Assembly (NCBI GenBank): GCA_036337945.1
Contig: JAYZDF010000104.1
Location: 15,401-79,400 of the forward strand
Length of the DNA stretch: 64,000 nucleotides
Direction of reading: 5' to 3'
Source: Myxococcota bacterium
Lineage (GTDB): Bacteria; Myxococcota; Kuafuiibacteriia; Kuafuiibacteriales; Kuafuiibacteriaceae
The position numbers and the translations under genes were made by a program. Below the pieces are notes generated by a model. That model made no database searches, was not told where the DNA came from, and saw nothing but the letters and a program-made list of their open reading frames with translations. Below are positions 17,640-63,849 of this stretch, in pieces; positions within the stretch are counted from its first letter, which is position 1, and each line of letters begins with the position of its first letter.

Positions 17640-19568
17640 CTAAACCGTGAGAATTTGTGTGGGTTGGTATGAAATATGCGGTAATTCCCCCGAAGATGCG
17701 CTCAAGAATCTTTGAGCCCATTCCTCAAACATCAAAATAGACCAAAGCGAGGTGGCGTGGTTTCGAAGACCTCGCTGATGCTCTTTCCACATTTTTTGCA
17801 ACCCGCCATGATCCAGTAAACCGCTCCTTCCGCCTGGAGAATCAAAAAAAACACTCTCCGCCCTTTGTCTAAGGCCTCCTCGAAACCATATAGGTAACGG
17901 TACTGTAAACCCACGCTTCTCACGCTCAAACGTTTGGCGAGGAAGAGTGGCTTCTGCAGCTTTCTTAAGAGCGACCTTTGATGACTGTCCTGATAATTTA
18001 TAAGAAGACGGGAGGGTAGCCGCATACTGCACAACATGGTGGTCTAAAAGTGGAACACGAACTTCTAATGCGTGCGCCATTGATGCTCGATCAACCTTTA
18101 CCAAAATATCATCGCAAAGATATAGCTTTAGGTCGATGTACTGCAGACGGCTCAATGGATCTTGAATTTTCGTAGACCGAAGTGTGTCTTCAAAATGAAC
18201 GTAAGGGTCGTAATCGCGAAGCCCGAACAAGAAGTCATTATTCAAAAACAGCGGATAGGACTTTTGAGTAAGTGAAAGAAAATAAGCGCGTTCGTGATCT
18301 TTCGACAAATTGGTGAGAGTGGATTTGGCTCGAAGATAGCGGGGAAGGTAATCAGCTTTGGGGTACAACTTACCAAGACCACCAAACAGATACTTCCGAA
18401 CGGGGCGAGGAATCTTATTTCGGACAAGTGCTTCAGCCATCGCAAACCGATATCTTCTATAGCCAGCAAAATTCTCATCTCCACCGTCTCCGGAAAGTGC
18501 GACAGTAACTCTTTGCCGGGTCGCTTGGCACAGGTAATATGTAGGTATCGCAGAAGAGTCACCAAAGGGCTCGTCATAAAACCAGCTTAAATCGGTAAGC
18601 ACTTTTGTTGAGTCGACCTTCATTACTTTTTCGAAATGTGAGGTTTCAAAATGTTGTGAAGTATCTCGAGCATAATCTCGTTCATCGTACTCTTGCTCTT
18701 CGAATCCTATCGTATGTGTAAGAACCTTTTTGTTATGGCTTTTTGCCATCATGGCGACAATGAAACTGGAATCGATTCCTCCAGAAAGGAATGCTCCCAA
18801 TGGGACATCTGCTCTCAGCCGGAGATCGACTGCCCGCTCGATGTGTTCCAACAAGCCTTCAACCGCTCGATTCATAGACATATCTTGCGGCGAAAATTCA
18901 ACATCCCAGTATTTATGAATGGAGACGCCACTATGATTGACTCGCATCATATGACCAGCCGGAAGGCGGTGAATATCTTGAAGTATAGTTTGCCGGCCTG
19001 GAACATAATTATAAGCAAAATAATCCATAACTGCTTCAGGATTAATCTTTCGGTAAATTTTTGGATCTTCAACTATCGCTTTGAGCTCGGATGCAAAAGT
19101 GAACTGGCCGTTGATTGAGCAATAATAAAGAGGCTTCTTTCCGAGTCGATCGCGAGCAAGAAAAAGCGTTTTTTCTTGGCGATCATAAATAGCAAACGCA
19201 AACATGCCATCAAAATGATGGACGCAATCTGATCCCCATTCACGGTATGCATAAATGATTGTCTCAGTGTCAGAATCAGACTGAAATCTATGCCCTTTCT
19301 TCGTAAGTATCTCACGAAGTTCTCGGTAGTTATAAATTTCTCCATTGAAGACGATACCGATTCGGTTTTCCGAATCCCACATTGGTTGTAAGCCGCCTTC
19401 GAGATCAATGATGGAAAGTCTTCGGTGGCCAAGCCCCACTGACTCATCAAGCCATAGGCCTCCGGCATCCGGACCTCGATGAGCAAGGCTATCGGTCTGA
19501 CGCAATAGTAAGCTCTTCGAGACGGGCTCACTCGAATTAAAGTGAAAGGTACCGACAATGCCGCACAT
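17640..19568 (-). CDS. asparagine synthase (glutamine-hydrolysing) family amidotransferase, exosortase/EPS-associated type
   Basis: The Ntn glutaminase requires Cys as residue 2. MCGIVGTFHF begins at the ATG at 19568, 9 nt after the upstream stop, so the longer track ORF (to 19643) is rejected. Motifs seen: HRGPD, SGGIDSS (PP-loop). The size (642 aa) and the FemAB-like neighbour match the PEP-CTERM-associated amidotransferase class as I remember it (TIGR03108-like). Confidence 0.85.
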   Translation of the reverse strand: MCGIVGTFHFNSSEPVSKSLLLRQTDSLAHRGPDAGGLWLDESVGLGHRRLSIIDLEGGLQPMWDSENRIGIVFNGEIYNYRELREILTKKGHRFQSDSDTETIIYAYREWGSDCVHHFDGMFAFAIYDRQEKTLFLARDRLGKKPLYYCSINGQFTFASELKAIVEDPKIYRKINPEAVMDYFAYNYVPGRQTILQDIHRLPAGHMMRVNHSGVSIHKYWDVEFSPQDMSMNRAVEGLLEHIERAVDLRLRADVPLGAFLSGGIDSSFIVAMMAKSHNKKVLTHTIGFEEQEYDERDYARDTSQHFETSHFEKVMKVDSTKVLTDLSWFYDEPFGDSSAIPTYYLCQATRQRVTVALSGDGGDENFAGYRRYRFAMAEALVRNKIPRPVRKYLFGGLGKLYPKADYLPRYLRAKSTLTNLSKDHERAYFLSLTQKSYPLFLNNDFLFGLRDYDPYVHFEDTLRSTKIQDPLSRLQYIDLKLYLCDDILVKVDRASMAHALEVRVPLLDHHVVQYAATLPSSYKLSGQSSKVALKKAAEATLPRQTFEREKRGFTVPLPIWFRGGLRQRAESVFFDSPGGRSGLLDHGGLQKMWKEHQRGLRNHATSLWSILMFEEWAQRFLSASSGELPHISYQPTQILTV

Positions 19569-19576
19569 GATCTGAT

Positions 19577-20647
19577 CTAAGGAATTCTCCGCTGGATAAT
19601 TGGCCCAAACTTTTGAGTCGCAACCAACGGAAGTTTTCGCCAAAGCCGAATCGCTCGTTCATACTTTGGGTTATTTGGGTTCACCTGAGGAAGCTCCTCT
19701 AGATGGAGTAGATCATATTGATATCGAAGTTCAATGGGTGCCATTCCCATATTTTTTTTGAACCTAAAGGCGCCCGTATTCGCCTTGCTGCGACCAAAAT
19801 CAAAAGTCCGATACCCAAGGTCATAACCGGTCTCAAGCATATGCCAATACATATAATTGTTCACGCCAGCATTACGGGCCTCAGGAAGGGTCCCTGCAAA
19901 AAAAGGCATCATGATATCTTTGTAGTAAAAGTTCAGTACAATCCCAACAATGCGACCTGCTTCACGTATACAAACAAAGTCTGAACGACACTCATCAAGA
20001 GCGTTTCTAAAGAGAGCCTTCGGAAATGTTGGTGTCCCAAGCGCTCGTAATGAAAGTGTATATAGGTCGTAGAAAGGATCGAGAACGTCCCTTGTGTAGA
20101 CTCCTTTAAGGTTTGCTTTTTGCCCTGTTCGTACCACGGCTCGCGTTTTTCGTGGAATCGCTTTCAGTTGCTTATCTCTGTCTCCAAACAATTCTTGTTG
20201 AAAGCGATAATACAGTCCGTCCTTGGTCGGCAGGTCATCAAAAACGGGGGTTTCCGTTTTATACTCAACGTATTCAAGTTTTTCTTTTTCTGCGTATTCG
20301 CGGGCAGCGCTTCGCAAAAGACCCGCGGATTCGCTGTCTTTCGCAAGAATACCACCACCGACCGCTACGGGAACAGAGACCAACGCCCTGGGAAATGGCA
20401 CTGCGCCGACCACAAAGCAGGGTAAGACACCGGTCCATTGCTCCCCTCGCTTCGTAAAAAAATATTTCGCGGTATAGCCATAGGTTTTCTCAATGGTTCG
20501 ACGCCAACACAAAAGGTGAAAGATACTTCCTTGAGAATGCTCATGTACAAAGACATCCCACGGGACGGAGTAGTCGTCTTGAAGCTCAAATAAAGCTACA
20601 GGTGAAGATTCTTCAGACATAGAGGAATTTGGAATACTCAGCACCAA
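19577..20647 (-). CDS. FemAB-like (GNAT-fold) protein, PEP-CTERM-system-associated type
   Basis: PWDVFVHEHSQGSIFHLLCWRRTIEKTYGY...GVLPCFVV...LVSVPVAVGGGIL resembles the FemAB-related family found beside AsnB-like amidotransferases in EPS/exosortase loci (TIGR03019-like, from memory). The start is either the TTG at 20647 or the ATG at 20620. Confidence 0.65.
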   Translation of the reverse strand: MVLSIPNSSMSEESSPVALFELQDDYSVPWDVFVHEHSQGSIFHLLCWRRTIEKTYGYTAKYFFTKRGEQWTGVLPCFVVGAVPFPRALVSVPVAVGGGILAKDSESAGLLRSAAREYAEKEKLEYVEYKTETPVFDDLPTKDGLYYRFQQELFGDRDKQLKAIPRKTRAVVRTGQKANLKGVYTRDVLDPFYDLYTLSLRALGTPTFPKALFRNALDECRSDFVCIREAGRIVGIVLNFYYKDIMMPFFAGTLPEARNAGVNNYMYWHMLETGYDLGYRTFDFGRSKANTGAFRFKKNMGMAPIELRYQYDLLHLEELPQVNPNNPKYERAIRLWRKLPLVATQKFGPIIQRRIP

Positions 20648-26215: not shown

Positions 26216-26821
26216 TCAATTGTACCCTCGAACGTTACAACTTGTTGAGCCAGGCGGGCAGGACACCCCGTGCGAGTAACTCCGGCGAACCGCCATCCGA
26301 ATCGGAGCGATTAACGGACCTCCTTGTTCTGCGTTATCGACTTCTATCAAGATTTCGATGCCACCAGGTCCCACGAGATTTGTGTTGCCGGGAACGGGTG
26401 ATTGACACTCTGTGCATTGATTAACCACATATCTCGCTTGAAACGCGGCTACGAGGCCAGCCGGTGGCGAACTACCGTTGAGAGATTCATAGCTTCCGGA
26501 AACGAATTCCCCTACGGACACAATAGAGCTTCCCACCACGGGATTCATGACGGGCTGTCCGGTCACTTGCAAACCCGGGTCATAGTCTGTGGGCGACCGC
26601 AATTCAGCGTCACTAATTTCGGCCATAAGTCGAGTAGCAATAGCTACGGCTTCCTGATTCGATGCGAGTCCCTTGTTGTTTTGAATAAATACGCCAATCA
26701 ATTTCAAGGACAGCATGGAGCCGATTCCTAGAATCGCGAGAGCGACAAGAACCTCAATTAACGAAAAACCGCGGCGAGTGGATTTTTTGAATGATGTCCT
26801 CACGACCTTTTCCTCCATCAT
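26216..26821 (-). CDS. pilV: PilV-like minor pilin
   Basis: Prepilin motif RRG-FSLIEVLVALAILGIG. I chose the ATG at 26821 because it forms an ATGA overlap with the stop of the upstream fimT-like gene. The track's longer ORF (to 26869) would overlap that gene by 52 nt. Confidence 0.6.
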   Translation of the reverse strand: MMEEKVVRTSFKKSTRRGFSLIEVLVALAILGIGSMLSLKLIGVFIQNNKGLASNQEAVAIATRLMAEISDAELRSPTDYDPGLQVTGQPVMNPVVGSSIVSVGEFVSGSYESLNGSSPPAGLVAAFQARYVVNQCTECQSPVPGNTNLVGPGGIEILIEVDNAEQGGPLIAPIRMAVRRSYSHGVSCPPGSTSCNVRGYN

Positions 26822-27582
26822 GTGTTGCACCGCCCAACAAATTCGGGTTCGCGTCCAGCTTCGATACAAGCGACACCCGAGGGGAAGATAAGAATGTTTT
26901 CGTCGCGGTTTGTAATCGCCAGCGTCTGGCCTTCCTCATGCTCACGCATAGGAACAGAAATGACACCATCATTTAGAGCACCTGGGCCCGTGGCACTAAT
27001 GAAGCCGCGACTGTCGAAGGTTATATTCAGCCGGTTTCCAACCAATCCTTCGGCCAAACTACGATTGAAAATGACCGCATTGCGATAAGCCTCAGGATAA
27101 CTGAAAGTCTTGCATCGAATTTCGTAGGTTGGTGGCTGAGGAACGCCATTGAGTGCGGGCGCGAACTGCCGAACAACGTCCGTTACGAAGGTCACGCTAT
27201 GACCTGGCGTATCACTGGGCATATTGAGATTCCAACCTCCGGCAATATCATTCATGTCGACTTGAATTCCGGCTCGAAAGCCGCCGGTAAAAGGATCCTC
27301 AAAAGCCACAGGGCATGCGCCAGGTTGCCCGGGAGGAGGAGAAGAAACTCTTGGCGTCCCAGACGCTGAACCAAGCAACAAAGCATTCGCTTGAGCCAAG
27401 CGAACTTGACCAATGAAGTTGTTCTTCGCGGTCACGGCCCGCCTTTGTCTTTGAACACCAAAAAGGGATGCCTGGGCTACGCCAATGAGGACCAGAATGA
27501 CCCCCATAGCGACCATAACCTCTACTAGTGTAAACCCTTTACTGGAGGGACCTGGACTTTTTCCCTGCATTACATGTTTCAT
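26818..27582 (-). CDS. FimT/FimU (GspH)-like minor pilin
   Basis: Prepilin motif SKG-FTLVEVMVAMGVIL. It is the first gene of the minor-pilin array. Confidence 0.55.
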   Translation of the reverse strand: MKHVMQGKSPGPSSKGFTLVEVMVAMGVILVLIGVAQASLFGVQRQRRAVTAKNNFIGQVRLAQANALLLGSASGTPRVSSPPPGQPGACPVAFEDPFTGGFRAGIQVDMNDIAGGWNLNMPSDTPGHSVTFVTDVVRQFAPALNGVPQPPTYEIRCKTFSYPEAYRNAVIFNRSLAEGLVGNRLNITFDSRGFISATGPGALNDGVISVPMREHEEGQTLAITNRDENILIFPSGVACIEAGREPEFVGRCNT

Positions 27583-27689
27583 GTCTTGCAGATCTTACGC
27601 CATACAGGATGATTACGCGAAAACTTTGCCAAACTGCAATGGAGTGCACCAGCTGCGCAAAAGTTCTCCGGTTCGAGCCTCGATTCAAA

Positions 27690-28871
27690 CTAGGAATCGT
27701 CGTCGAAGTGCATTTTGATATCGGGTCCCATCCTTGCAAGCATATGTTTTTTCAAGCGTTTTTTGAGTGCACTGACAATCTGCCCCATTCGCTGTTTGGA
27801 TACGCCGAACCGCTCGCCCAGGACGGACAAAGAGAGAGGTTCTTCGGCTGTCATATGTTCCAGAAAAATCGCACGTTCCCGATCGTCTTTAAGGGTTTCT
27901 TCGAAAAGCTTGAAGGACTCGGCGACATTTTCAGCGAAAGCTTTTTCGTGCACCGCCGACTCGGGGCTCGCTTCCGCGCCCGACAACAAATCCATCATTG
28001 TCTGCTTGCTGTCACCATCACGGGACAGCGGAACATCGAGGCGAACTTCAGGCTGATCTAAATGAGGCGCTACTTCGTGAATGTCTGATTCGGAAACACC
28101 AATTTTTTCCGCAAGAAGTTTGGGCCCGGGTTCAATGCCCAGTGCTCGAAGCTTCTCTCGTTCTTTTGACAGCCGAAAAAACAATTTACGGCCCGCACGA
28201 GTCCTCGCGACCTTAACATTTCGGGAGTGCTCAAGAATAAAACGCAGCAGATACGCACGAATCCAAAAAGCCGCGTACGTCGAAAACCTAGCGCCCTTAT
28301 ATGGATTATATCGACTAATCGCCTCGAGCAGTCCAATATTCCCTTCTTGAATCAAGTCCAGAGTATTAGACCAAGCGCGGCGATACTTATAAGCCATCTT
28401 CACGACCAAGCGGAGGTTATGAACCGCGAGCGCTTGGGCTGCTTGCTTGTCTTCTTCTTCGAAAACGCGAATCGCCAGCGCGCGCTCGTCTTCCAACGAT
28501 AAGACGGGATATTGCCCTATCGTCTGCATATAGGCCTGAAGAGGACCTACTCGACTGACCGCACTGCTCGACCTGGAAACGGGGAGACTCAATCCCCGCT
28601 TTGTCACCGCGTCCGCACGGCCCACATCGTAGACCGGACCATCTTGTTCAAGCGTCGTCGCGCGAGATAAGGTCCCCGACACCGCCCCATCTTCACCGGC
28701 AATCGCGATCGGTGAAACAGGTCCGCTCACGCTGGTCATTGCATCGGGCGAGTAGTACTCACTTGGTAACAGGATCTCGGGATCTGTCTCTTTTGCCGCA
28801 TCTTGTGAGATTACTTCGGTCAGCTTAGATTTGGCCTTAGATTGAGCCTTGGGCTTACTTTCATTAGACAT
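27690..28871 (-). CDS. RpoH-like (sigma-32 family) RNA polymerase sigma factor with an N-terminal extension of about 110 aa
   Basis: Region 2 reads DLIQEGNIGLLEAISRYNPYKGARFSTYAAFWIRAY. An RpoH-box-like AGRKLFFRLSKE is present. The region 4.2 HTH is LSVLGERFGVSKQRMGQIVSALKK. Confidence 0.8.
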   Translation of the reverse strand: MSNESKPKAQSKAKSKLTEVISQDAAKETDPEILLPSEYYSPDAMTSVSGPVSPIAIAGEDGAVSGTLSRATTLEQDGPVYDVGRADAVTKRGLSLPVSRSSSAVSRVGPLQAYMQTIGQYPVLSLEDERALAIRVFEEEDKQAAQALAVHNLRLVVKMAYKYRRAWSNTLDLIQEGNIGLLEAISRYNPYKGARFSTYAAFWIRAYLLRFILEHSRNVKVARTRAGRKLFFRLSKEREKLRALGIEPGPKLLAEKIGVSESDIHEVAPHLDQPEVRLDVPLSRDGDSKQTMMDLLSGAEASPESAVHEKAFAENVAESFKLFEETLKDDRERAIFLEHMTAEEPLSLSVLGERFGVSKQRMGQIVSALKKRLKKHMLARMGPDIKMHFDDDS

Positions 28872-28910
28872 CGCGTCTTCGCCGATCGCAGTGTGCGTGC
28901 ATTTACAAAT

Positions 28911-29255
28911 CTAGGCTAGTTCTTCGAGATAAACGTCTTCGTTAAATCCGACTAAGACCAATTTTTTCGACCGTATACAGGGTGCACGAAGGTTTCCTGT
29001 GGGTCCTAACATGGCGTCCACAGCGTCTTCAGTCACACCCTCTTTACCAATTTCGAACGTTCGTACCTTCTTGCCTTTGGCAACAATCATCTTCTTCGCT
29101 TGTTCAGCAATCTGAGTCGCATCTTCACGACCCAGCTTCGCGGAAGCCTTTACAATTTCCGCGGGCTCAATGTTTTGGGCTTCCATAAACTTGGAAGCTT
29201 TGGTGCAGCTCGTTCAACCGTTACGGTGGTAATACCATTCTACTTTTGCGCTCAT
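28911..29255 (-). CDS. ArsC/Spx-family thioredoxin-fold protein with in-frame TGA (candidate selenocysteine, U-T-S-C motif)
   Basis: My own translation from the ATG at 29255 gives MSAKVEWYYHRNG-[TGA at 29214..29216]-TSCTKASKFMEAQNIEP...NLRAPCIRSKKLVLVGFNEDVYLEELA. The TGA sits at the first Cys position of the family CxxC. The C-terminus resembles the Spx/ArsC block (LLRRPII...VGYNEDE). A hairpin follows the TGA. The track lists only the 3' part (28911..29186). Confidence 0.6.
29179..29198 (-). promoter_or_regulatory. putative bacterial SECIS hairpin
   Basis: On the mRNA the sequence is GCUUCCA-AGUUUA-UGGAAGC: a perfect 7-bp stem and a 6-nt loop with GU. The stem starts 15 nt 3' of the in-frame UGA. 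The ATG used by the track ORF lies inside this hairpin. Confidence 0.5.
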
Positions 29256-29307
29256 AGCCCTGTGATCCAACCATAAAGTACGAAAAGAACCCAGTGCTAA
29301 ATCAAAA

Positions 29308-30072
29308 TTACAGTTGCATCGCGGCTCGCTCAGCCACTTCCGCTAGGAATCCAGACGAATTGAAGAATTGAAATTGAAACCGCCCCAGAATAAGAACATC
29401 GAGGTTCTGAATTTCCATAACAGCACCTTTTTCAAGCTGAGTTCCGTTGACGTAAGTGCCATTCAGAGACTGAATATCAGATACCATGACTTTTCGATCG
29501 ACCGTCTCAAATTGACAATGATGCTGAGAAATCGCGAATTCTGGGACAACAACATCGTTAGACTGCGCTCGACCAATCCGAACAACACCAGGCGTTCCAT
29601 GGATAGGGCTGGCTTTTAGTTCCCAAACACGCCCCGCACTGCCAGGGGTTCCATCTGCGGCGACATCAACGGTATCAAGCTCGACGGAGCGGGTCATTCT
29701 AGCACCCGCCCGATTGTCGCCAGTTAGGTCAGCTAACAGCCCAATACCTACAAGAAAAGAGTTTGGGAAATATGCCTGAAAGTGAGCATTCCCCATTTTA
29801 TTCAGGAGCTTAACGTAATGCCGAACATAGAGAAGCTCCATATTCGGGGTGAACTCAGATTTCGGACGACCAGGACGCCTAATTTCTTTGCGCGGCACAA
29901 TCACATTGCCACCCAAAGCAACATTTTCAGCATCAACATCGGGAGGTGGTACTGCGACGGTCGGTCGGGGCTGAACCTTTATCCCGTCCTTTGACGTCGT
30001 CGACAAATTCTGGGAGCCGGACTTCGAAGAAGTGGCCGGTTTCTTCGATTTCTTTTTTGAAAACCAAGCCAT
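29308..30072 (-). CDS. FHA domain-containing protein
   Basis: C-terminal FHA domain: VVRIGRAQSNDVVVPEFAISQHHCQFETVDRKVMVSDIQSLNGTYVNG. The basic N-terminus is MAWFSKKKSKK. I prefer the ATG at 30072 to the track's upstream non-ATG start at 30201. Confidence 0.75.
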   Translation of the reverse strand: MAWFSKKKSKKPATSSKSGSQNLSTTSKDGIKVQPRPTVAVPPPDVDAENVALGGNVIVPRKEIRRPGRPKSEFTPNMELLYVRHYVKLLNKMGNAHFQAYFPNSFLVGIGLLADLTGDNRAGARMTRSVELDTVDVAADGTPGSAGRVWELKASPIHGTPGVVRIGRAQSNDVVVPEFAISQHHCQFETVDRKVMVSDIQSLNGTYVNGTQLEKGAVMEIQNLDVLILGRFQFQFFNSSGFLAEVAERAAMQL

Positions 30073-30340
30073 GTCCCGAAGGTATCGTAAAAACACGACC
30101 ATCGGCAAATTTTGAGCACCAGGAAGGTTCAAGTTTACCCCGAATACCTCACTGAGGGAGCAAAGCTGTCGATAAGAGTAAGAATTAGCCCCAAAAAACA
30201 CCCGTTGCAGGGGCTTCTATGGTTGCTCTTGGCGAAGGGTTTTTATAAATCATTTCGAGGATTACTTCAGCTGCCGAGCCTCCACTAAATTGAAGCCGCT
30301 ATGCCAGCTATGATCCTCGAAGGGACCACCCGCAGAAGCT

Positions 30341-32011
30341 ATGAATCGCCAACTGATCGCCAAACTTGGACTCACAATCGCAGTCATTACTCCTCTTACA
30401 TGCGGAGAAGACACTCAGGAAGCTGCCGACAATTTCCCATCCACATTTTGTCCGGGTCAATCGCTATGTCTCGATGAGGGAAACGGCACCTTTTTCGCGG
30501 GCTCAGCAAAAACAGTCATTACCGCGCCGCTCAAAGAGTCACTAACCACCGATATTGATGGCGATGCTCAATACGACCCCATCGATGGTGACGAATTTGA
30601 TGACGCCAATGCTAATGGGACATTCGATGGAACTTGGATGGCTGGCTTTGGGAACGCACGAGCAGCCAAAAGCGTCTTAGACGCACAGTGGGCACGAGTC
30701 GTCGCGCTTCGGCAAAATGAAACCTTAATCGTTCTCGTTGCCATTGACGTCGTTGGTTATTTCTTCGACGAAGTTGCCGCCATTCGAGAAGCCGTCTCGG
30801 ATTTGGGCATTGACCACCTTTCGATCAGCGCAACCCATACTCATGAAGCCGCCGATACCGTCGGAATCTGGGGACTCACTGAGGACGAGTCAGGCGTGGA
30901 CCCAGAGTATATGGCCTACGTACGCAGACAAATTGAAACAGGAATACGGCAAGCAGTCGCGAACCAAAAAGAATCGCACGTTCGGCGCGTCAATCTGAGA
31001 ACACGTGACCTTCCCGGTGGAATGATTCAGTATCAAAGTGACACCCGAGACCCACAAATTATCGATGACGAAATTCGCGTATTACAATTTATCGACCAGC
31101 AAGACCAAACCATTGCGACCCTGCTCAATTGGGGCTCACACCCTGAATACCTAGGTGACGAAAACGATGCGCTCTCCAGTGACTTTCCGCATTGGTTTCG
31201 TGAAGGTATCGAAAACGGTGGTAAAGGACCGGGTGATGAGCAGTTCCAAGGTGTCGGTGGAATCGCGGTATTTGTAACCGGGGCCCTTGGTAGCCAAATT
31301 GGTCCAGGAACCGCAAAACTTAGGACCTGGGACAACGAGCCGATTGCGAAGTACTCACCGATCGCCGCAGAAATCCTGGGCACTCAGCTTGCCTATTATT
31401 CGCTGAAACAACTTCAGGATGACTCCGTCGCAACCTTGGAGAACAATCCCCAACTTGGATTTGCGCGTGAAATCTTTTTTATCGATATTCAAAACCGGGC
31501 CTATCATACCGCGATTCTCAAAAAGCTTTTCGACCGTCAAACCTACAACTGGGATGACGAATACACACTTCGCCCGGGAGAAAATGAACCTGACATTCAA
31601 ACAGAAGTCGCGATCATTGACATTGGAGCAACTCAAATCATCACGGTCCCAGGAGAACTAGACCCGGCTCTTTTTGTTGGTGGTTACGACGGAAGTTACA
31701 CGCCAAAAGGAGAAATGCTCGTTGATACAAGCACCCGCGTAAAAAATCCTCCTGAACTGGACAAAGCACCCGCAGGCCCGTACTTGCGTGACCTGGCACG
31801 CGAAGAGGCCACGCAAGTCATGTTGTTCGGGCTCACGAACGATATGCTTGGCTACTTTGTTCCAGAGTTCGACTACAAGCTTCACCCTTTCAACCCGTAT
31901 TTTGACGAAGCAGAAGGCGATCACTACGAAGAAACGAACTCTGTCGGTATAGACGGATGGCCTCTCATCAAAAGTAAACTCACTTCACTACTCACGTGGA
32001 GAAGACAATAA
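30341..32011 (+). CDS. secreted hydrolase, neutral/alkaline ceramidase N-terminal-domain-like
   Basis: N-terminal signal-like segment. The block DAQWARVVALRQNETLIVLVAIDVVGYFFDEV...IDHLSISATHTHEAADTVG follows the ceramidase pattern (WARAFV...LVYVNTDLGM...MLAATHTHSGPGG in the Pseudomonas enzyme, from memory). Confidence 0.4.
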   Translation: MNRQLIAKLGLTIAVITPLTCGEDTQEAADNFPSTFCPGQSLCLDEGNGTFFAGSAKTVITAPLKESLTTDIDGDAQYDPIDGDEFDDANANGTFDGTWMAGFGNARAAKSVLDAQWARVVALRQNETLIVLVAIDVVGYFFDEVAAIREAVSDLGIDHLSISATHTHEAADTVGIWGLTEDESGVDPEYMAYVRRQIETGIRQAVANQKESHVRRVNLRTRDLPGGMIQYQSDTRDPQIIDDEIRVLQFIDQQDQTIATLLNWGSHPEYLGDENDALSSDFPHWFREGIENGGKGPGDEQFQGVGGIAVFVTGALGSQIGPGTAKLRTWDNEPIAKYSPIAAEILGTQLAYYSLKQLQDDSVATLENNPQLGFAREIFFIDIQNRAYHTAILKKLFDRQTYNWDDEYTLRPGENEPDIQTEVAIIDIGATQIITVPGELDPALFVGGYDGSYTPKGEMLVDTSTRVKNPPELDKAPAGPYLRDLAREEATQVMLFGLTNDMLGYFVPEFDYKLHPFNPYFDEAEGDHYEETNSVGIDGWPLIKSKLTSLLTWRRQ

Positions 32012-37470: not shown

Positions 37471-40400
37471 TTAGCGAGGCGTCAAAGTGAATGACTGACC
37501 GGTTGGGAAATCACCCGGGTTGTTACTGCTCGGACGACCATCGCAATTCGGTGAACAACCGTTTTGCTCTCCGAACTCGCCCGTCTGGTTTTCGTACCCA
37601 ATCGTCGCATCATATGGGCTGAAATTTTGCGCGGCAAAGATGAACTCGGTTGGACCGTAGATCAGCGTTATCTCATTCGTACCCTCAGAGAGTACAACTT
37701 GGAAGTTCCAGTAACGGAAGCCTTGATTCAACTGACGCTGTTCGTAATGACCTAGATTTTGCCATTGAACGATCAATTCTCGATTCGGAGCCATTCCTCG
37801 TACATCGTAAGATAGGCTCGAGTTCAACGGCTGACCCTGTTGCGTGGTTCGATTGGACAAGAAAATGAGATCATCCCAGAAAGGCGCAACAAATCCATTT
37901 GGAGCATCGGTCTGCGGAATAGTTTGATTGCTGGCATAGGTCGCATAAGGCACGACATCCATAAATAAGATGCCATTAACACTTGCGGTCACCGAAGAGG
38001 TTGGAACTCCGTAGTACTCAAACGGGAACGGAATATCGATCACGGCTAGTCCATCGTCCGTATTGTCGACAACAGCTCCGCTTTGATTTTCATTCTGCGG
38101 ATTCAAAGTCGTCGCGGCCATTGAGTCTAGAGGTGAGTACATCGATGCAACGGGCATCGCTGTGTCGTACCCCGGGAACACACAGTTCGACTGGCAGCCG
38201 TCACCGTTGGTCGTGTTTCCATCGTCACACTCTTCGACACCGACCTGGAGATATCCGTCACCACAAATCGCTGAAATACACCCGTCCACGCAGGCATCGC
38301 TGTTGTCAAAGTTGGCATCATCGCATTCTTCTTGACCCATCCAAGTGAAACCGTCACCGCAGAACGCAGAGCGACATCCGTCAGTACATGCATCTTCATT
38401 CGACATGTTGCCATCGTCGCAGGCTTCGTTCGCGTCGGTCGTTGAATCACCGCAGGTTTGAGACAAGCAATATGGGGTATAGGTAATGCGAATCTGAGAA
38501 CCATTCGCAGGCACATTCCCATCCGTGAAAAGAACTGTCTGGTCGACCGCATTATAATTCCATACAGCTTGCATCATGCCATTTTGCGCCGGCACGTTTG
38601 TTCCATCAACCGTGACAGCAATCGTAGAAGGCAGCGGCTCGGCAGACAGGGCGAATTCTGACCCACCGAAGAGGTACTCAGCGAGTGTGGCGAGGTTGGG
38701 TCCCATAGGCTCGCAGAATGAAAGGTTCAGACCATTCCCAACGCGAGTCACAAGCTCGGCATAACGAGGAGAGTCATTGGCGTCGCCATAACCTCCTTGA
38801 TTCACTGGCCAATCACAATCCTGGGTCGGTGGGCCAACGATGGTTGATGCAGAAAAGTTTCCGGCACCTGCGGCCGCTTCAAAGGCATTGATCGCGTCTT
38901 CAATGCTCCCGCCAAGTTCAGCGTTCGATGATTGGTCATCCTCACTGCTCAAGATAATCACGACCAAGTCAGCATCATTGCGTAAGAAGCCGTTATTGGA
39001 CCCAGTCGAAAGAGGTGGTGTGACCGCGCGAAGCGCAGCGGCGATGCCGCTCTCCCGAGTTGGGTCGCCGTTGTCGCCGACTTCGATACGTGTCTCAACT
39101 TCGTCGATGTAGTTCGCCGTATTGCTCGATACGAAAGCGGGGCTGCCTATCATTTGCCCCTGACGATTCGGGCTGACCATATCGGTTGTGACGACGGCAA
39201 AGTGTAGATCGACACCACGGTTCACCAAAGTGTTTGAAAAAGCCGAGAAAGTATCGGAAAGCGCATCTTGCGCCTCAGTCATATCCGGGGAGTCATCGAT
39301 GACGAATAAAACGTCAGCCTTCGGCGACGTAAAGTCAGTGACATCCGTTCGAGCGGGTTGGGAGGCGCCCTCACCAGTCAAATTGACAATGGTTGGTGAC
39401 GCCTGTCCATCCACGACGACACTCAATTGAGCAGTCTTCACGCCGAGAGCTTGTGGGTCAAACTCAATATTCACCGTATAGGTTTCAAGTCGGTCTAATG
39501 CAGTGTTCGCTGGGACCGCTGGACTGATCGCAAAATCGGTCGCGTCGGGCCCGACCAGATTTACCGAACGAATCTCAAGCTCTTGAGTTCCGACGTTCGT
39601 CAACTCAACCGACCGAACTTGGGCGGCCGCTGCGCAGCCGACCGGGGTTTGACCAAAATCTACGCTGCTGGGCGACGCCACCAAATTGATGTCTCCGCCT
39701 GCGCCACTCAGGCTCGCAGTGAGCGTGGAAGTCATCGGGTTGTTGAAGCTCACAGCTATCAAGCCGGCGCTGGTTTGTGGGGCCGTCGGTGTAAAGACGA
39801 CATCAAAAGTAACGCTATTGCCGCCCGCGATCGAGTCGCCACTTGCAGGCAGACCTTCGAGTCGAAAATCCATCGAGGTCCCGCCCGCGAAAGAGACGTT
39901 GTCGATGATACAATCGCTCGCGCCTTGGTTTTGTACTAAGAAGCTTGCCCGTTGAGCACGACCTAAAGAGACAAGCCCAAAATCATAGGTCGAAGGAGAA
40001 AGCTCCGCGGTACAAATTTGGATGTCCAAAAATTCAGCGGCGAGAGTCACGTCGATACTCGGGGTGTCCGCATCGTTACTCGTAATTTCCAGTGTACCCG
40101 TTTGTGCACCAGCAGTCGCGGCCGAAGCTTGGACTGTTAGCCTTGTAGAATCGCCTGCATCAACGTTTGCGGGGAGTGTTGACACGACCGAAAAGGCAGA
40201 GCCGGTTACGTTCGCGTTGATCACAAGTTCTTCGGTACCGTTATTCGTACAAACGACTTCTTCAGTGAGTTGAGCGTTTAGGCCTCCGATGCCGAAGTCT
40301 AAGCTGAGTGGGGTACATTCAATGTCGGGTCCCCCACCTTTTCCGTTGAGCGTCACCCGCTCTTCAAAAACTGTAGGTGAAGTTCCATTGATGACTAAAG

Positions 40401-41175
40401 TCGCGGTGTCGTCTTGAAAATCGGTTGGGCAATATTCAACAGAAATATTAGCAGAAGAACCTGCCCCAACAGTGATAGGAAGCATTTGTTGAGCTAACGT
40501 GAAAACGCTAGAGGTATCACCCTCGATATTGAGATTCGAAATCGCTTCATCCAGGTTTCCACTGTTTTGGCAGATGACATCACTTGTGCTGCATTGACCA
40601 GGGTTGACCGAACCGAAGTCAACAGGGCTGGCACAAGAAACTCCAGTTGCAATACCGGTTGCTTCAAGCGTGATCGCGACGGGGCAATTTCCCATACATG
40701 AATCAAGAGCAAGACTCGCGAATATCTCGCCCACGCTCGACGTCGAGACAGTGAGTGATACCTGAACTGTTTCTCCAACACCCAGAACGAAGACGCCGTT
40801 CTCATTCGTCGTACTAATGGTTCGCGTGAAGCGTTCTGCATCGCGACCAGATGGTTCCGACAAAGAGACACGAACCGGACTCATTTGAGGATTCTTGACC
40901 GTCAAAATGAATGTCGCAGTGGAGCTGACAACCACTTCGCCAAAATCTACTCGGGTCGTATTGAGTTCAACCTCTCCGGCCATAACCGAAGCATCAACCC
41001 CTGGAGAACCTGCGTCGGGCGCATCTGATGAACCCGCATCAGCTGGTGGGGTCACTGCCGCATCTTTGGCTTGGTTAGGATTGGTCAGATCTGCTGTCTC
41101 CGATTCGGAACATGCGATCATTCCAAAACTCAAAACACTCGATAAGAACAAAATGTGTCCTGTCGTCACTCTCAT
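37471..41175 (-). CDS. giant cell-surface lipoprotein: Ig-like (choice-of-anchor-D/ASH-like) repeats, vWA-like domain, Myxococcus-type cysteine-rich repeats, NIDO-like C-terminal domain
   Basis: The lipobox is SFGMIAC. There are about six repeats of the DFG.V..G......F.V.N.G...L.I type. A vWA-like start VLFVIDDSPDM follows. There are three CGDG...EECDDGN-type repeats at about 38180..38468. The C-terminal block is FPFEYYG...VNGILF...APFWDDL. Confidence 0.75.
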   Translation of the reverse strand: MRVTTGHILFLSSVLSFGMIACSESETADLTNPNQAKDAAVTPPADAGSSDAPDAGSPGVDASVMAGEVELNTTRVDFGEVVVSSTATFILTVKNPQMSPVRVSLSEPSGRDAERFTRTISTTNENGVFVLGVGETVQVSLTVSTSSVGEIFASLALDSCMGNCPVAITLEATGIATGVSCASPVDFGSVNPGQCSTSDVICQNSGNLDEAISNLNIEGDTSSVFTLAQQMLPITVGAGSSANISVEYCPTDFQDDTATLVINGTSPTVFEERVTLNGKGGGPDIECTPLSLDFGIGGLNAQLTEEVVCTNNGTEELVINANVTGSAFSVVSTLPANVDAGDSTRLTVQASAATAGAQTGTLEITSNDADTPSIDVTLAAEFLDIQICTAELSPSTYDFGLVSLGRAQRASFLVQNQGASDCIIDNVSFAGGTSMDFRLEGLPASGDSIAGGNSVTFDVVFTPTAPQTSAGLIAVSFNNPMTSTLTASLSGAGGDINLVASPSSVDFGQTPVGCAAAAQVRSVELTNVGTQELEIRSVNLVGPDATDFAISPAVPANTALDRLETYTVNIEFDPQALGVKTAQLSVVVDGQASPTIVNLTGEGASQPARTDVTDFTSPKADVLFVIDDSPDMTEAQDALSDTFSAFSNTLVNRGVDLHFAVVTTDMVSPNRQGQMIGSPAFVSSNTANYIDEVETRIEVGDNGDPTRESGIAAALRAVTPPLSTGSNNGFLRNDADLVVIILSSEDDQSSNAELGGSIEDAINAFEAAAGAGNFSASTIVGPPTQDCDWPVNQGGYGDANDSPRYAELVTRVGNGLNLSFCEPMGPNLATLAEYLFGGSEFALSAEPLPSTIAVTVDGTNVPAQNGMMQAVWNYNAVDQTVLFTDGNVPANGSQIRITYTPYCLSQTCGDSTTDANEACDDGNMSNEDACTDGCRSAFCGDGFTWMGQEECDDANFDNSDACVDGCISAICGDGYLQVGVEECDDGNTTNGDGCQSNCVFPGYDTAMPVASMYSPLDSMAATTLNPQNENQSGAVVDNTDDGLAVIDIPFPFEYYGVPTSSVTASVNGILFMDVVPYATYASNQTIPQTDAPNGFVAPFWDDLIFLSNRTTQQGQPLNSSLSYDVRGMAPNRELIVQWQNLGHYEQRQLNQGFRYWNFQVVLSEGTNEITLIYGPTEFIFAAQNFSPYDATIGYENQTGEFGEQNGCSPNCDGRPSSNNPGDFPTGQSFTLTPR

Positions 41176-50248: not shown

Positions 50249-51025
50249 CTAGTTATCTAGCACGAGGCGCTTGCGGCAATTGGCGCAAAACTGAATTCCC
50301 CGCTTATCGGTATCTTGGACGGACGTCGATTGAAACATCACGCAACGGTTGTTGGGGCAATGCGCCAAGCCCTTTATGAGGCCCATTTGATGAATTAATT
50401 CTGATACAAACCGGCGACGCAGAACTTCTTGTCGAGTCGTCACGCTACCAAGCGTTGACCGCATTCGGTTCAAACTTATGATCGCAGAACGGGTACTGCG
50501 GTCAGCTTCTCCGAAGACAAAGGGTACTTCTGGTACAAATAGATCTAAGTCTGTAATACCAACGGCTGCAGACCAACTATCAAGTCGAGCGCTTTCCACG
50601 CGTTTCAAAATAGCGGCGGAATGGTATTGCTCTCGTGTAGGATTGAAAGCGTACTTAGGAACAGGAAGAGGCGTTCCTACCTCGATCGTTCGAGCAAAAA
50701 CTTGTTCAACGGGACCCTTCACAAGTTGAAGCACTTCTTCGTCTAGTTCACCAACTGGAACCAAAACAATGGGTGCACTCATTCCTAGAGCTTCGCTGCT
50801 GCCAGGTGCTGGGTCTGCGAGGTCTGGGTGAATAGGTAACTCAGCGCTGTCACCGGCGGGCATAAAGCTTGAGCTATCGAAACGTCTTTTGGGTGATTGT
50901 TCCTTATGATTCATCGATTGCGATTCAGACCCTGGCAAACCGCTCCAAGGAAGGCAACAGGAAAACACTGAAGGGCCGAAATCTTTGTACTTTTGTGCGT
51001 TGATGTATGCCTCATAAATTCGCAA
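50249..51025 (-). CDS. archaemetzincin-like (peptidase M54-like) protein with altered zinc motif
   Basis: SELIHQMGLIKGLAHCPNNRCVMFQSTSVQDTDKRGIQFCANCRKRL follows HExxHxxG...HC....CxM...(17)...CxxC, but the first His is Ser and a few residues are inserted. The start is uncertain: candidate Met codons are at 50914, 50863 and 50782, and the homologous core begins near 50782. Confidence 0.45.
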   Translation of the reverse strand: MRIYEAYINAQKYKDFGPSVFSCCLPWSGLPGSESQSMNHKEQSPKRRFDSSSFMPAGDSAELPIHPDLADPAPGSSEALGMSAPIVLVPVGELDEEVLQLVKGPVEQVFARTIEVGTPLPVPKYAFNPTREQYHSAAILKRVESARLDSWSAAVGITDLDLFVPEVPFVFGEADRSTRSAIISLNRMRSTLGSVTTRQEVLRRRFVSELIHQMGLIKGLAHCPNNRCVMFQSTSVQDTDKRGIQFCANCRKRLVLDN

Positions 51026-51069
51026 ATTTGTCCGTTTGCGCCTAGGGTTAAGAGCAGAAGACGGTTTTT

Positions 51070-51915
51070 ATGTTAGGCGGGTACAATCACAACATCCGAT
51101 ACCGTGACCGGGTATATCACGTTCAGACGGAGGATCTTGGTCTCCAAGCAGCTCGAATTCGCACCCATATTTTCTTCAACGGAGCCGTCGTTGCAGAAAC
51201 GCAACAAACCTACGCAGAGCTCCTACATCAACCAATGCCGCCCCAACAGCGTGAAACATACATTCGAGGTCGAATGCAGGCATTGCATAAGGATGCGATG
51301 AAGAAGCTGACCGAAGGAAAGCTTGATGCGTTAATATTTCGCCTGCCGCAACCCTCTCATATGTCGCCCACGCAGCAACACGATCGACCTCCACCGAATC
51401 CTGCAAAGAACCCAATACCTCCTCGGGGTATGCAACGACCAACGGCTGCGCCAAGCAATGTGCCTGGTCACTCTCATATTCAGAATGCCGCAAGGTCTGT
51501 AGGACCGCAGAACCACCCTGCTCAATCTCATCCACAAAATTCTGCGAGACCTCAACAGTATCAGGCGGGAAGCAACATCCCAACCGAGGGGCCTCTTGAA
51601 ACCACACCTAGTCAGCAGTCCCCTTCATCTGTTTCGTCGATTCCACCTGTTTCAGTCAAAGCGGAGAAGAAGTTAGAGCCCCCTGAGGACATTCCAGGAC
51701 GAGCAAAACGACTCTTTCCGAAGAAGGACAAGAAAACAGAATCTATGTCGGCGGAAGAGCGAATGATTCAAGCGAGGATTTCGCGCAGTGAGTCCAGCAT
51801 TGTAAAAAACCGCAAATCTCAAATTTCAGACGAGGTGAAAGAGGCGGATGACCGTGAGAGGTCAGCACGAGCGTCCCGTTCACGAAACACAGTACGGCCT
51901 TATAAGGTAGATTGA
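51070..51915 (+). CDS. hypothetical protein with a structured N-terminal domain and a Pro/Gln/Ser-rich tail
   Basis: 281-aa ORF. The N-terminus is GGYNHNIRYRDRVYHVQTEDLG...IFFNGAVVAE. The remainder is low in complexity (P, Q, S, basic residues). Confidence 0.5.
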   Translation: MLGGYNHNIRYRDRVYHVQTEDLGLQAARIRTHIFFNGAVVAETQQTYAELLHQPMPPQQRETYIRGRMQALHKDAMKKLTEGKLDALIFRLPQPSHMSPTQQHDRPPPNPAKNPIPPRGMQRPTAAPSNVPGHSHIQNAARSVGPQNHPAQSHPQNSARPQQYQAGSNIPTEGPLETTPSQQSPSSVSSIPPVSVKAEKKLEPPEDIPGRAKRLFPKKDKKTESMSAEERMIQARISRSESSIVKNRKSQISDEVKEADDRERSARASRSRNTVRPYKVD

Positions 51916-61917: not shown

Positions 61918-63003
61918 TTAATGAGCTTCTTGATTCTTACGTTTGAGCGCAGCCCGGTCGATCAATTCGCGCAACTCGGCATCTGAAGGCACCCCGCGAC
62001 TAGAAACAATCCCATTTAGAAAAATGCTTGGAGTACCGCGGACCCCAGCATTCATTCCTTGGGCCATATCCTTTCGAACGTTTTCTTCTGCTTGATCAGA
62101 TTGAAGACATAATTCAAACTTTTCGGAGTTCAGGCCAAGCTCGATAGCTAACTTCGCATAGTCCACTTCCACTAGCTTTTCTTGCTTCTCAAATAGTTTG
62201 TCATGGAAAGGCCAAAACGCGTTTTGCTGATTTGCACATTCGGAAGCTATCGCCGCCGGCATCGCATTTTTATGAAAACTCAGCGGATAGTGCATAAAAA
62301 CAAGCGAGATTTGTTCACCAAACTTTTTGATCCGTCGTTCGAGGTCATTTGCAGCAAGTCGACAATAAGGACACTCAAAATCGCTGAATTCCACAATCGT
62401 AACGAGAGAGTTTTTTGCCCCCTTCGAGGGTCGACTTGAGAGGTCAAAATTGAAGGGTAATAAATTGGGCTCATCTAATAGAAGTTCCACTTTCGCATCA
62501 GCATATAAGCGCTCCAACTTCTCTGTGATTATTTCCTTCTGTTTTTCTTGCAGGAGGTACTTCGCAATCTCACCCCGAACAACCTCATAGTCTTGGTTAA
62601 TTCGCGAACGATTGGCTTCGTAGAACCTCTTTACGACATCGGTATCAACTTGTCCCGCCGACTGCCGGAGCTCATTCATATAATCTTTGTAGGAAAGTGA
62701 TTTTTCAGCAGCCGCTTTTCGCAAAAGCTCTTCGGAGACAATCGCGTTTAGAGCTTCCATTTCTTTCTCATAGAAACTGCTCAGAAACTTGTTCTTTGCC
62801 CTTCTCATTTCACCACCCGCTTTCGAAATAATCTGACCATAGGAAACCGTCTCGTTTCCCCAGCGAGCAACGATCTTTTGATGATCAAATCTTCCTATCG
62901 TTTGATTTTTTGTCTCAACAGTTTCGCAGGATTTGTTAGAAACAGGTGTCTGATGCGCACACGCAAAAAACGATACAAGCGTAAGTAAGCCAAGGTTTTT
63001 CAC
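61918..63003 (-). CDS. DsbA-family thiol:disulfide oxidoreductase lipoprotein with an N-terminal chaperone-like (SurA_N-like) domain
   Basis: The lipobox is SFFAC. Motifs seen: FSDFECPYCRLA (CxxC) and GVRGTPSIFLNG (cis-Pro loop). Confidence 0.8.
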   Translation of the reverse strand: MKNLGLLTLVSFFACAHQTPVSNKSCETVETKNQTIGRFDHQKIVARWGNETVSYGQIISKAGGEMRRAKNKFLSSFYEKEMEALNAIVSEELLRKAAAEKSLSYKDYMNELRQSAGQVDTDVVKRFYEANRSRINQDYEVVRGEIAKYLLQEKQKEIITEKLERLYADAKVELLLDEPNLLPFNFDLSSRPSKGAKNSLVTIVEFSDFECPYCRLAANDLERRIKKFGEQISLVFMHYPLSFHKNAMPAAIASECANQQNAFWPFHDKLFEKQEKLVEVDYAKLAIELGLNSEKFELCLQSDQAEENVRKDMAQGMNAGVRGTPSIFLNGIVSSRGVPSDAELRELIDRAALKRKNQEAH

Positions 63004-63024
63004 GTTGACTTCGTCGCATAGGCG

Positions 63025-63849
63025 TCACGGCCTTACAAGCGTAACTAGTAGAAACTTAATTCGGTGGGCGTCTCCTGGTTGATGACCAAAAAGCGGACGC
63101 ACCTCACGAACAGGAAACGGCAGTGTTTTCGTTTTGAAGGGAGGAGGGAGTTTAAGCCAGTACTCAGACACTTGAAGAGGCATATTGAGGACCGTTGAAA
63201 GCAAAGGAAGATCCTCGTACTCCACGGAGATACGATCATAATTTTCTCCCCAAGGCGGATCGATGAATGCAATATCGGCGGCCGGAATATCTGGGACAAA
63301 CTCAAGGTCTGCATGGCGAAAATCAATATTTGCTTGTACACGATATATCCTTGCATTGTGTCTTGCCATTGCGAGTCTCTGTTTGGAGCGTTCAATCGAG
63401 ACAACCTTACATTCACTGCGAGCAAATCCGATCGAGTTACCTCCAACCCCACAACCCAAGTCGAGAATCGTTTGGCCCCTCGCCATCGAACCGATTTCAA
63501 GCGCGATGGATTCGGGAGTGAGTGAAAATCGACCCTCTTCGTCCGTCAAAGTCCCTGAACGAAGAAAACTCTTGGTCTTGTGCCTTCTGGCCACAGCCTC
63601 AAGTCTTCGCGCCTCTCTAACCCATGGTCTCGGTATTTTTGGGGAGACTGTGACTTCTAGCGGCGAACCCTCAAGTCCTAGACCGCGAAGACGGGCTTGA
63701 AGGAGGGCCGCATCCTTTCGAACTAAAGTTGTCGTGGCCGCAAGCCCTCCCTCCAATTTCTGGATTTCCCATGGATAGTCTCCGAGAAGTTTTTGAAGGG
63801 GTAGCCAGCTCGGCAGAGGCCGAATTTCAATCGAGTGAAGGGCGGCCAC
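63025..63849 (-). CDS. class I SAM-dependent methyltransferase, TGS1-like (Methyltransf_15-like)
   Basis: FSLTPESIALEIG...ILDLGCGVGGNSIGFA...VVSIERSKQRLAMARHNARIYRV...IDFRHAD...AFIDPPWGENYD follows the trimethylguanosine-synthase-like pattern (TPE..A, GvGGN.IqFA, hNA.iYGV, PPWGG.Y). It has a GTG start. Confidence 0.65.
   Translation of the reverse strand: MAALHSIEIRPLPSWLPLQKLLGDYPWEIQKLEGGLAATTTLVRKDAALLQARLRGLGLEGSPLEVTVSPKIPRPWVREARRLEAVARRHKTKSFLRSGTLTDEEGRFSLTPESIALEIGSMARGQTILDLGCGVGGNSIGFARSECKVVSIERSKQRLAMARHNARIYRVQANIDFRHADLEFVPDIPAADIAFIDPPWGENYDRISVEYEDLPLLSTVLNMPLQVSEYWLKLPPPFKTKTLPFPVREVRPLFGHQPGDAHRIKFLLVTLVRP

Follow-up and report, generated by a model that had tools for sequence, protein, structure and literature searches.

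ArsC-like selenoproteins were listed for bacterial genomes in 2006 (PMC1794560). The 2008 Global Ocean Sampling (GOS) study, in agreement with the statement of the original prediction that such proteins have been predicted from metagenomes, listed an "Arsenate reductase 2" (cd03032) with a UxxC motif, represented by 42 selenocysteine (Sec) sequences in 21 samples and by 238 Cys homologues, as well as a separate "ArsC 1" form with a UxxS motif (PMC2398784). An "Arsenate reductase-like protein, UxxC" is also found in PMC13188914, where it is credited to the 2008 GOS paper. The NCBIfam family NF041106 ("ArsC_rel_Se_1, ArsC family (seleno)protein") is identical to this entry, and the GOS "Arsenate reductase 2" is most likely its counterpart. 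The family, its UxxC motif and the recoding of its TGA codon have been known since 2008 and a curated NCBI model exists; the window analyzed here (the entire 64 kb stretch of DNA) adds one more member. To our knowledge, no member of this family has been shown experimentally to contain selenium, and any functional work on NF041106 would be new.

For the locus in question the list of open reading frames (ORFs) contained a 91-amino-acid ORF alone (28911..29186), which starts at an internal ATG. An exact search for this product in the assembly index returned no record. When the minus strand was re-read and translated, the frame was found to be open from an ATG at 29255 to a TAG at 28913..28911 with the TGA at 29216..29214 as its single interruption, exactly as originally claimed, and the positions and sequence statements given earlier for start, TGA, stop and hairpin were all correct. 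Translation of 28908..29255 on the minus strand resulted in MSAKVEWYYHRNG, a stop, TSCTKASKFMEAQNIEPAEIVK...NLRAPCIRSKKLVLVGFNEDVYLEELA and a final stop. We consider it very likely that the UGA at codon 14 is decoded as Sec and that the product is a 114-amino-acid thioredoxin-fold protein of the ArsC/Spx/YffB superfamily and a member of NF041106, which on the minus strand reads MSAKVEWYYHRNG-U-TSCTKASKFMEAQN...NLRAPCIRSKKLVLVGFNEDVYLEELA. This reading is directly supported by a frame that continues past the UGA, by the assignment to the family, by the pairing of Sec and Cys in homologues and by a hairpin conservation that is specific for TGA. The features of the gene are as follows:

28911..29255, minus strand: full coding sequence of the predicted ArsC-family selenoprotein, 114 amino acids including Sec14 (translation, NF041106, PF03960)
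29255..29253, minus strand: start codon ATG
29216..29214, minus strand: in-frame UGA, residue 14, first position of U-T-S-C
29205..29207, minus strand: codon TGC of Cys17, the partner residue in U-x-x-C (read from the sequence)
29179..29198, minus strand: hairpin with 5' arm GCUUCCA (29198..29192), loop AGUUUA (29191..29186) and 3' arm UGGAAGC (29185..29179)
29184..29186, minus strand: internal ATG (Met24), the start according to ORF finders and not the true start
28980..29009, minus strand: invariant LGPTGNLRAP segment, residues 83-92 (alignments A1 and A3)
28913..28911, minus strand: stop codon TAG

The hairpin contains the internal ATG (29186..29184), whose A is the last base of the loop and whose TG opens the 3' arm. 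Only a weak AGGG is visible by eye four nucleotides upstream of the true start at 29255. Positions one and two (TG) of the Cys17 codon were invariant in alignment A2. In thioredoxin-fold proteins a cis-Pro loop is located opposite the active site, and by analogy the LGPTGNLRAP segment would represent this loop. Directly after the invariant RAP, the window protein carries an additional Cys (Cys93, 28978-28980, minus strand, within RAPCIRS) at a position that is occupied by Thr in most family members and by Cys in about ten of the 80 related loci described below. Located beside the presumed cis-Pro loop, Cys93 may be a third redox-active residue. For annotation, the 91-amino-acid call would be replaced by a 114-amino-acid coding sequence in which codon 14 is marked as a Sec exception.

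Profile searches were performed with the 114-amino-acid product in which U had been replaced by C. The product matched NF041106 with 110.4 bits (cutoff 85) over the full length of the model (residues 5-109 onto profile positions 1-107 of 107) and Pfam ArsC (PF03960) with 28.3 bits (gathering threshold 24; residues 9-111 onto profile positions 1-78 of 79), confirming the proposed membership in the ArsC/Spx family. TIGR01617 (Spx/MgsR) scored 35.1 bits and did not pass its cutoff of 75.05, the Spx equivalog models in NCBIfam remained below their cutoffs as well (18-30 bits versus 123-159), and TIGR00014 (arsenate reductase equivalog) was absent among the NCBIfam families with E <= 1. When the family profile was searched against PDB sequences, Spx structures were the best matches with an E-value of about 2e-7. 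In this alignment C10-T-S-C13 of Spx corresponded to G-(U/C)-T-S-C, placing the TGA at Cys10 of Spx, and the C-terminal NLRAP...VGFNED was aligned with LLRRP...VGYNED. The TGA is therefore located at the first Cys of CxxC and the C-terminus resembles the conserved end of the family, both as proposed at the outset.

Among the described systems, the locus is most similar to the other members of NF041106 and the GOS UxxC family, with which it shares the above-cutoff full-length match, the position of U-x-x-C and the size (about 113 amino acids), and its source, which appears to be marine as judged by a closest relative on a TARA Oceans contig, is also in line with the GOS family. It is somewhat divergent from the other NF041106 members (the best GTDB loci are 57-62% identical to it), and apart from the third Cys after RAP and a lineage-specific neighborhood of FHA-domain and RpoH-like sigma factor genes, nothing of substance distinguishes it from them. 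With Spx/MgsR (TIGR01617; PDB 1z3e, 3gfk and 6gho) it has the thioredoxin-like ArsC-superfamily fold, the equivalence of C-T-S-C and U-T-S-C, and LRxP...VG(F/Y)NED in common, but it differs in its score (35 bits versus a cutoff of 75), its length (114 versus about 131 amino acids) and the presence of Sec in place of Cys, as well as in the predicted structural features detailed below. The glutaredoxin-coupled ArsC of the R773 type (TIGR00014) shares the Pfam family PF03960 and the fold class and also has a Sec form in the GOS data. However, the ArsC-type selenoprotein carries UxxS rather than the UxxC observed here, and TIGR00014 was not among the matches with E <= 1. No ars genes were present near the selenoprotein gene.

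Structural comparisons were based on an AlphaFold2 model (ma6adde9e3401) of the full-length Cys homologue P0003, which is 59% identical to the window protein. This model had a pLDDT of 93.6 and placed CxxC between strand 1 and helix 1. The nearest folds in the PDB were Spx, YffB and ArsC-related proteins with a TM-score of only about 0.55; the best matches, Spx structures, aligned with TM-scores of 0.51-0.56 and an rmsd of 6-7 A. The central insert of the model contains a beta-hairpin (strands 55-60 and 63-68) that includes a conserved VAKGKK segment, while the corresponding subdomain of the Spx and ArsC folds consists of helices only. The predicted beta-hairpin in the insert would explain the modest TM-score of about 0.55 to all solved structures of the ArsC superfamily and, together with this score, suggests that the family forms its own branch within the ArsC/Spx superfamily.

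The genes on either side of the selenoprotein gene are encoded on the same strand:

29308..30201, minus strand: FHA-domain gene, 52 nucleotides upstream of the selenoprotein gene
27690..28871, minus strand: RpoH-like sigma-70-family gene, 39 nucleotides downstream (TIGR02392 with 203 bits, below the cutoff of 323)

In 26216-30201 (minus strand) the order is FHA-domain gene, selenoprotein gene, RpoH-like sigma factor gene, followed by type IV pilin-like (N_methyl) genes, of which there are three or four, and the gaps between them are short. Since these same-strand gaps are short and no terminator-like site was detected on the minus strand in 28600..30500, the selenoprotein gene is probably co-transcribed with the FHA and sigma factor genes. 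The close relative L081, which comes from a TARA Oceans metagenome, has the same gene order. For the FHA, sigma factor, pilin and 556-amino-acid neighbors of the window, however, no tblastn matches were obtained in the 80 other loci, and clustering of all neighbors revealed no family that was present in more than nine of these 80 loci and thus no conserved neighborhood. The family thus has the character of a small redox protein that stands on its own, and the adjacency to the sigma factor gene is lineage-specific.

This arrangement raises the question of whether the protein, while being a genuine selenoprotein, senses the redox state and regulates transcription in the manner of Spx, as a partner of the adjacent RpoH-like sigma factor, instead of acting as a general oxidoreductase. 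The best PDB matches by sequence as well as by fold are Spx, and the sigma factor gene follows after only 39 nucleotides on the same strand, an order that is retained in L081. We nevertheless regard such a role as very improbable, considering that the TIGR01617 score is less than half of its cutoff, that the TM-score of the P0003 model to Spx is only about 0.55 and its insert contains a beta-hairpin instead of the helical subdomain of the known Spx fold, and that the sigma factor and FHA neighbors are missing at the 80 other loci. The more specific scenario that the selenoprotein was recruited into an operon of FHA, Sec-containing ArsC-like and RpoH-like sigma factor genes in a marine, probably Myxococcota lineage, where it would serve as a selenium-based Spx-like redox switch of the sigma factor, is highly improbable; if true, it would represent the first selenocysteine-dependent transcription regulator.

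The reading we prefer is that of a Sec-containing protein, which would act as an oxidoreductase. If the TGA were a true stop, the locus would either be a pseudogene, through decay of a Cys codon or an error in sequencing, or the 91-amino-acid product alone would be made. A product of about 90 amino acids is what ORF finders report, and most public gene calls agree with them. A protein search yielded 1273 homologues, and among the best 120, which were inspected, about 106 were truncated calls of approximately 90 amino acids and 14 were full length, illustrating the anticipated shortening of the gene by gene callers. Where the window has the TGA, eight of the 14 full-length entries carried a Cys and six a "W". 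As the original prediction had pointed out, the shorter product lacks the N-terminal part of the protein; judged by the P0003 model, it would miss strand 1 and the redox motif. We also scanned GTDB representative genomes and retained 80 loci from a total of at least 599 confirmed matches. These belonged to Myxococcota, Acidobacteriota, Gammaproteobacteria, Binatia and other MAGs and were at most 62% identical to the window protein (57-62% for the best ones). The homologous codon was TGA in 81 of 81 cases (the 80 kept loci and the window), a consistency across several phyla that argues against a stop, as does the conservation of the peptide encoded 5' of it, (M)..K(V/I)(D/E)WYYxRxG, in the same set of loci. 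The Gly codon preceding the TGA varied at its third base only, with GGT, GGC, GGG and GGA all represented, which indicates that translation continues through the TGA. At eight Cys-encoding loci (L085-L092, seven distinct proteins) TGC or TGT was present at this codon, and Cys therefore aligns with the TGA in the homologues as well as in Spx.

A start of translation at the internal Met was not apparent for the relatives either. In most homologues this residue is a Leu, so that they have no equivalent internal start, and given the conserved WYYxRxG upstream, none genuinely begins there. A relative with 97% identity is represented by four independent assemblies, namely one scaffold from TARA Oceans, two Logan runs and one metagenome assembly from NCBI. 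All four have the same TGA, not TGC or TGT, and an identical hairpin, which rules out a sequencing error. Two further observations are compatible with a true stop. One is the locus L069 (JBCCHL010000083.1, codon at about 3040), which has kept the TGA but lacks a hairpin in the register of the family (peptide ANAYLEA, 4 of 7 pairs, -2.8 kcal/mol); this gene may be in decay, or another SECIS may serve it. The other is that no Sec machinery was seen in the 64 kb window: selA, selB and selD were not found among 39 of the 40 ORFs of at least 200 amino acids (NCBIfam), and neither ARAGORN nor Rfam detected a tRNA-Sec in the window, in which the sole tRNA is tRNA-Lys. Because the window is a small part of the genome, this result says little in either direction. 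Weighing these points, we judge a true stop to be very unlikely and favor decoding as Sec, in which case the presence of the gene predicts a Sec-decoding trait for the organism.

A SECIS-like hairpin with GU in its apical loop had been proposed to start 15 nucleotides after the UGA. The hairpin is a perfect helix of 7 bp, separated from the UGA by 15 nucleotides as measured to the stem and by 22 nucleotides as measured to the loop, and it forms the core of both the MFE fold and the centroid fold, while the stability of the 81-nucleotide fold of this region was not unusual (z = -0.89). Published constraints for bacterial SECIS elements comprise an apical loop of 3-9 nucleotides on an upper stem of 4-16 bp, a G among the first two nucleotides of the loop, a distance from UGA to loop of 16-37 nucleotides and an MFE of at most -7.5 kcal/mol (PMC13188914). 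The hairpin agrees with all four (7 bp, loop AGUUUA, 22 nucleotides, -9.1 kcal/mol) and, since it is also conserved where the TGA is kept, the proposal was borne out. It resembles the elements recognized by bSECISearch, such as the one of E. coli fdhF, in its location inside the coding region just 3' of the UGA, its 7-bp upper stem, its 6-nucleotide loop, in which the G at position 2 directly precedes a U, and the above distance and energy. In contrast to the fdhF element, to which it has no sequence similarity, it displays no evident lower stem or bulged U. Rfam returned no SECIS or other relevant family, either for the whole window at the gathering threshold or for 29100-29300 at E <= 10. 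A scan of the entire window revealed that 46 of 2517 UGA triplets (1.8%) precede a hairpin that satisfies the same constraints, with 0.8% preceding one of equal or better stability. Taken alone, the hairpin is only moderately unusual, and it is the conservation in related loci that carries real weight.

This conservation was analyzed in an ungapped alignment of 54 columns containing the 81 TGA loci. Within the 7-pair helix, standard pairing was observed in 94.5% of the cells, compared to 25-38% when the 3' partner was slid by 1-3 columns. Double-sided changes occurred at three of the seven pairs: pair 24/39 (GC 39, GU 8, CG 6, UG 3, AU 1, UA 1), pair 22/41 (GC to UA in two sequences) and pair 25/38 (UA to GC in one sequence). 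The covariation score was not matched by any of 500 shuffles, although the covariation itself is modest and concentrated at one pair. In the locus L094, a C-G to U-A exchange at the sixth pair was noted by reading of the sequence. Much of the hairpin conservation is confounded with that of the encoded peptide ASKF(L/M)(D/E)A, making the Cys homologues the better control.

Among 85 TGA loci, all seven pairs were retained in 59 and six of seven in 23, so that at least six stem pairs were kept in 82 of 85; the mean hairpin energy was -9.3 kcal/mol and GU was present at loop positions 2-3 in 84 of 85. The orthologues that keep the TGA have thus, as a check, kept the hairpin as well. In contrast, the Cys-encoding loci L085-L092 retained between three and seven of the seven pairs, and five of the seven distinct hairpins were at -5.9 kcal/mol or weaker. 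The peptide encoded at the hairpin was also more variable in these loci (ASRFLDA, ASAFLKA, VNGFLEA and AQGFLEG), and the GU at loop positions 2-3 was kept by one Cys protein only (L085/L086). An RNA element that is kept in TGA loci and decays in Cys homologues is tied to the TGA, as predicted for a SECIS.

Three of the database entries with a "W" in place of the Cys were inspected and were of two kinds. Entry P0008 (L093:145-501; ENA SOGI22-1 scaffold_27014) has a genuine TGG (Trp) codon at the Sec/Cys position, resulting in KGWTSC; its hairpin has kept 7 of 7 stem pairs but lost the GU in the loop (ACUUCA). The single-base change from TGA to TGG would rescue Sec-free translation at the expense of the redox residue. 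P0016, which has 28 member sequences, and P0009 also show a "W", while the DNA at L094:72-413 and L095:1501-1848 has a TGA. Both loci do not translate to the stored protein and have TGA at this codon under table 11, which indicates that the "W" stems from TGA codons called under a TGA=Trp code. Such a false Trp allows selenoprotein genes to pass as full-length proteins in databases.

That the UGA is read as Trp or Cys by a route other than Sec insertion (an alternative code, a suppressor tRNA or near-cognate decoding), with the hairpin only slowing the ribosome, is extremely unlikely despite the "W" translations of P0009 and P0016 and the one relative with a genuine TGG, considering that a TGA=Trp genetic code is excluded by the inspection of these two entries and by stop-codon usage (of 39 long ORFs in the window, 8 end with TGA, and table 11 leaves ORFs with as many as 1234 amino acids intact), that the position is that of the redox Cys in CxxC, where exchange of Sec and Cys is a known pattern, and that the loop GU conserved in the TGA loci is a feature of the bSECIS model (PMC13188914).

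Decoding of the UGA as Sec, the reading we prefer, suggests the following mechanism. The hairpin 15 nucleotides downstream of the UGA would act as a bacterial SECIS, with the GU in its apical loop presumably binding the complex of SelB, GTP and Sec-tRNA(Sec) and thereby delivering the Sec-tRNA as the UGA reaches the A site. In the resulting protein, Sec14 and Cys17 of the U-T-S-C motif, positioned between strand 1 and the first helix, could form a reversible selenenylsulfide, and the protein would function as a small thiol/selenol oxidoreductase.

The window was also searched for further selenoproteins. A hairpin-based scan returned only the present gene and two out-of-frame or antisense artefacts. 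A scan for CxxU/UxxC motifs around in-frame TGAs pointed to a second candidate, the TGA at 63027..63025 (RPURLC), which was judged to be an ordinary stop between two ORFs that share a frame. In this region (61918-63849, minus strand), the upstream ORF is methyltransferase-like and the downstream ORF encodes a lipoprotein with a DsbA-like domain containing an ordinary CPYC motif. This lipoprotein partially matched NF041057 ("Rcas_1661 family thioredoxin-like (seleno)lipoprotein") with 91 bits (cutoff 190).

Elsewhere in the window, 17640-20647 (minus strand) contains an XrtA/PEP-CTERM-associated pair consisting of an amidotransferase (TIGR03108, 773.8 bits, just under the cutoff of 816.9) and a FemAB-family protein (TIGR03019, 311.7 bits, above cutoff), which suggests an exosortase system nearby. 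The window probably derives from Myxococcota, as suggested by three protein matches and by the taxonomic affiliation of the best-matching loci. One of the three proteins, of the archaemetzincin family, also matched the Myxococcus "non-zincin" model below its cutoff. Genes of Myxococcota flavor, among them the archaemetzincin-like one, were noted in 37471-41175 (minus strand) and 50249-51915, including a 1234-amino-acid protein with choice-of-anchor D domains and a myxo cysteine-rich repeat (myxo_disulf_rpt) as well as a protein with a RomY N-terminal domain (88.5 bits, cutoff 50).
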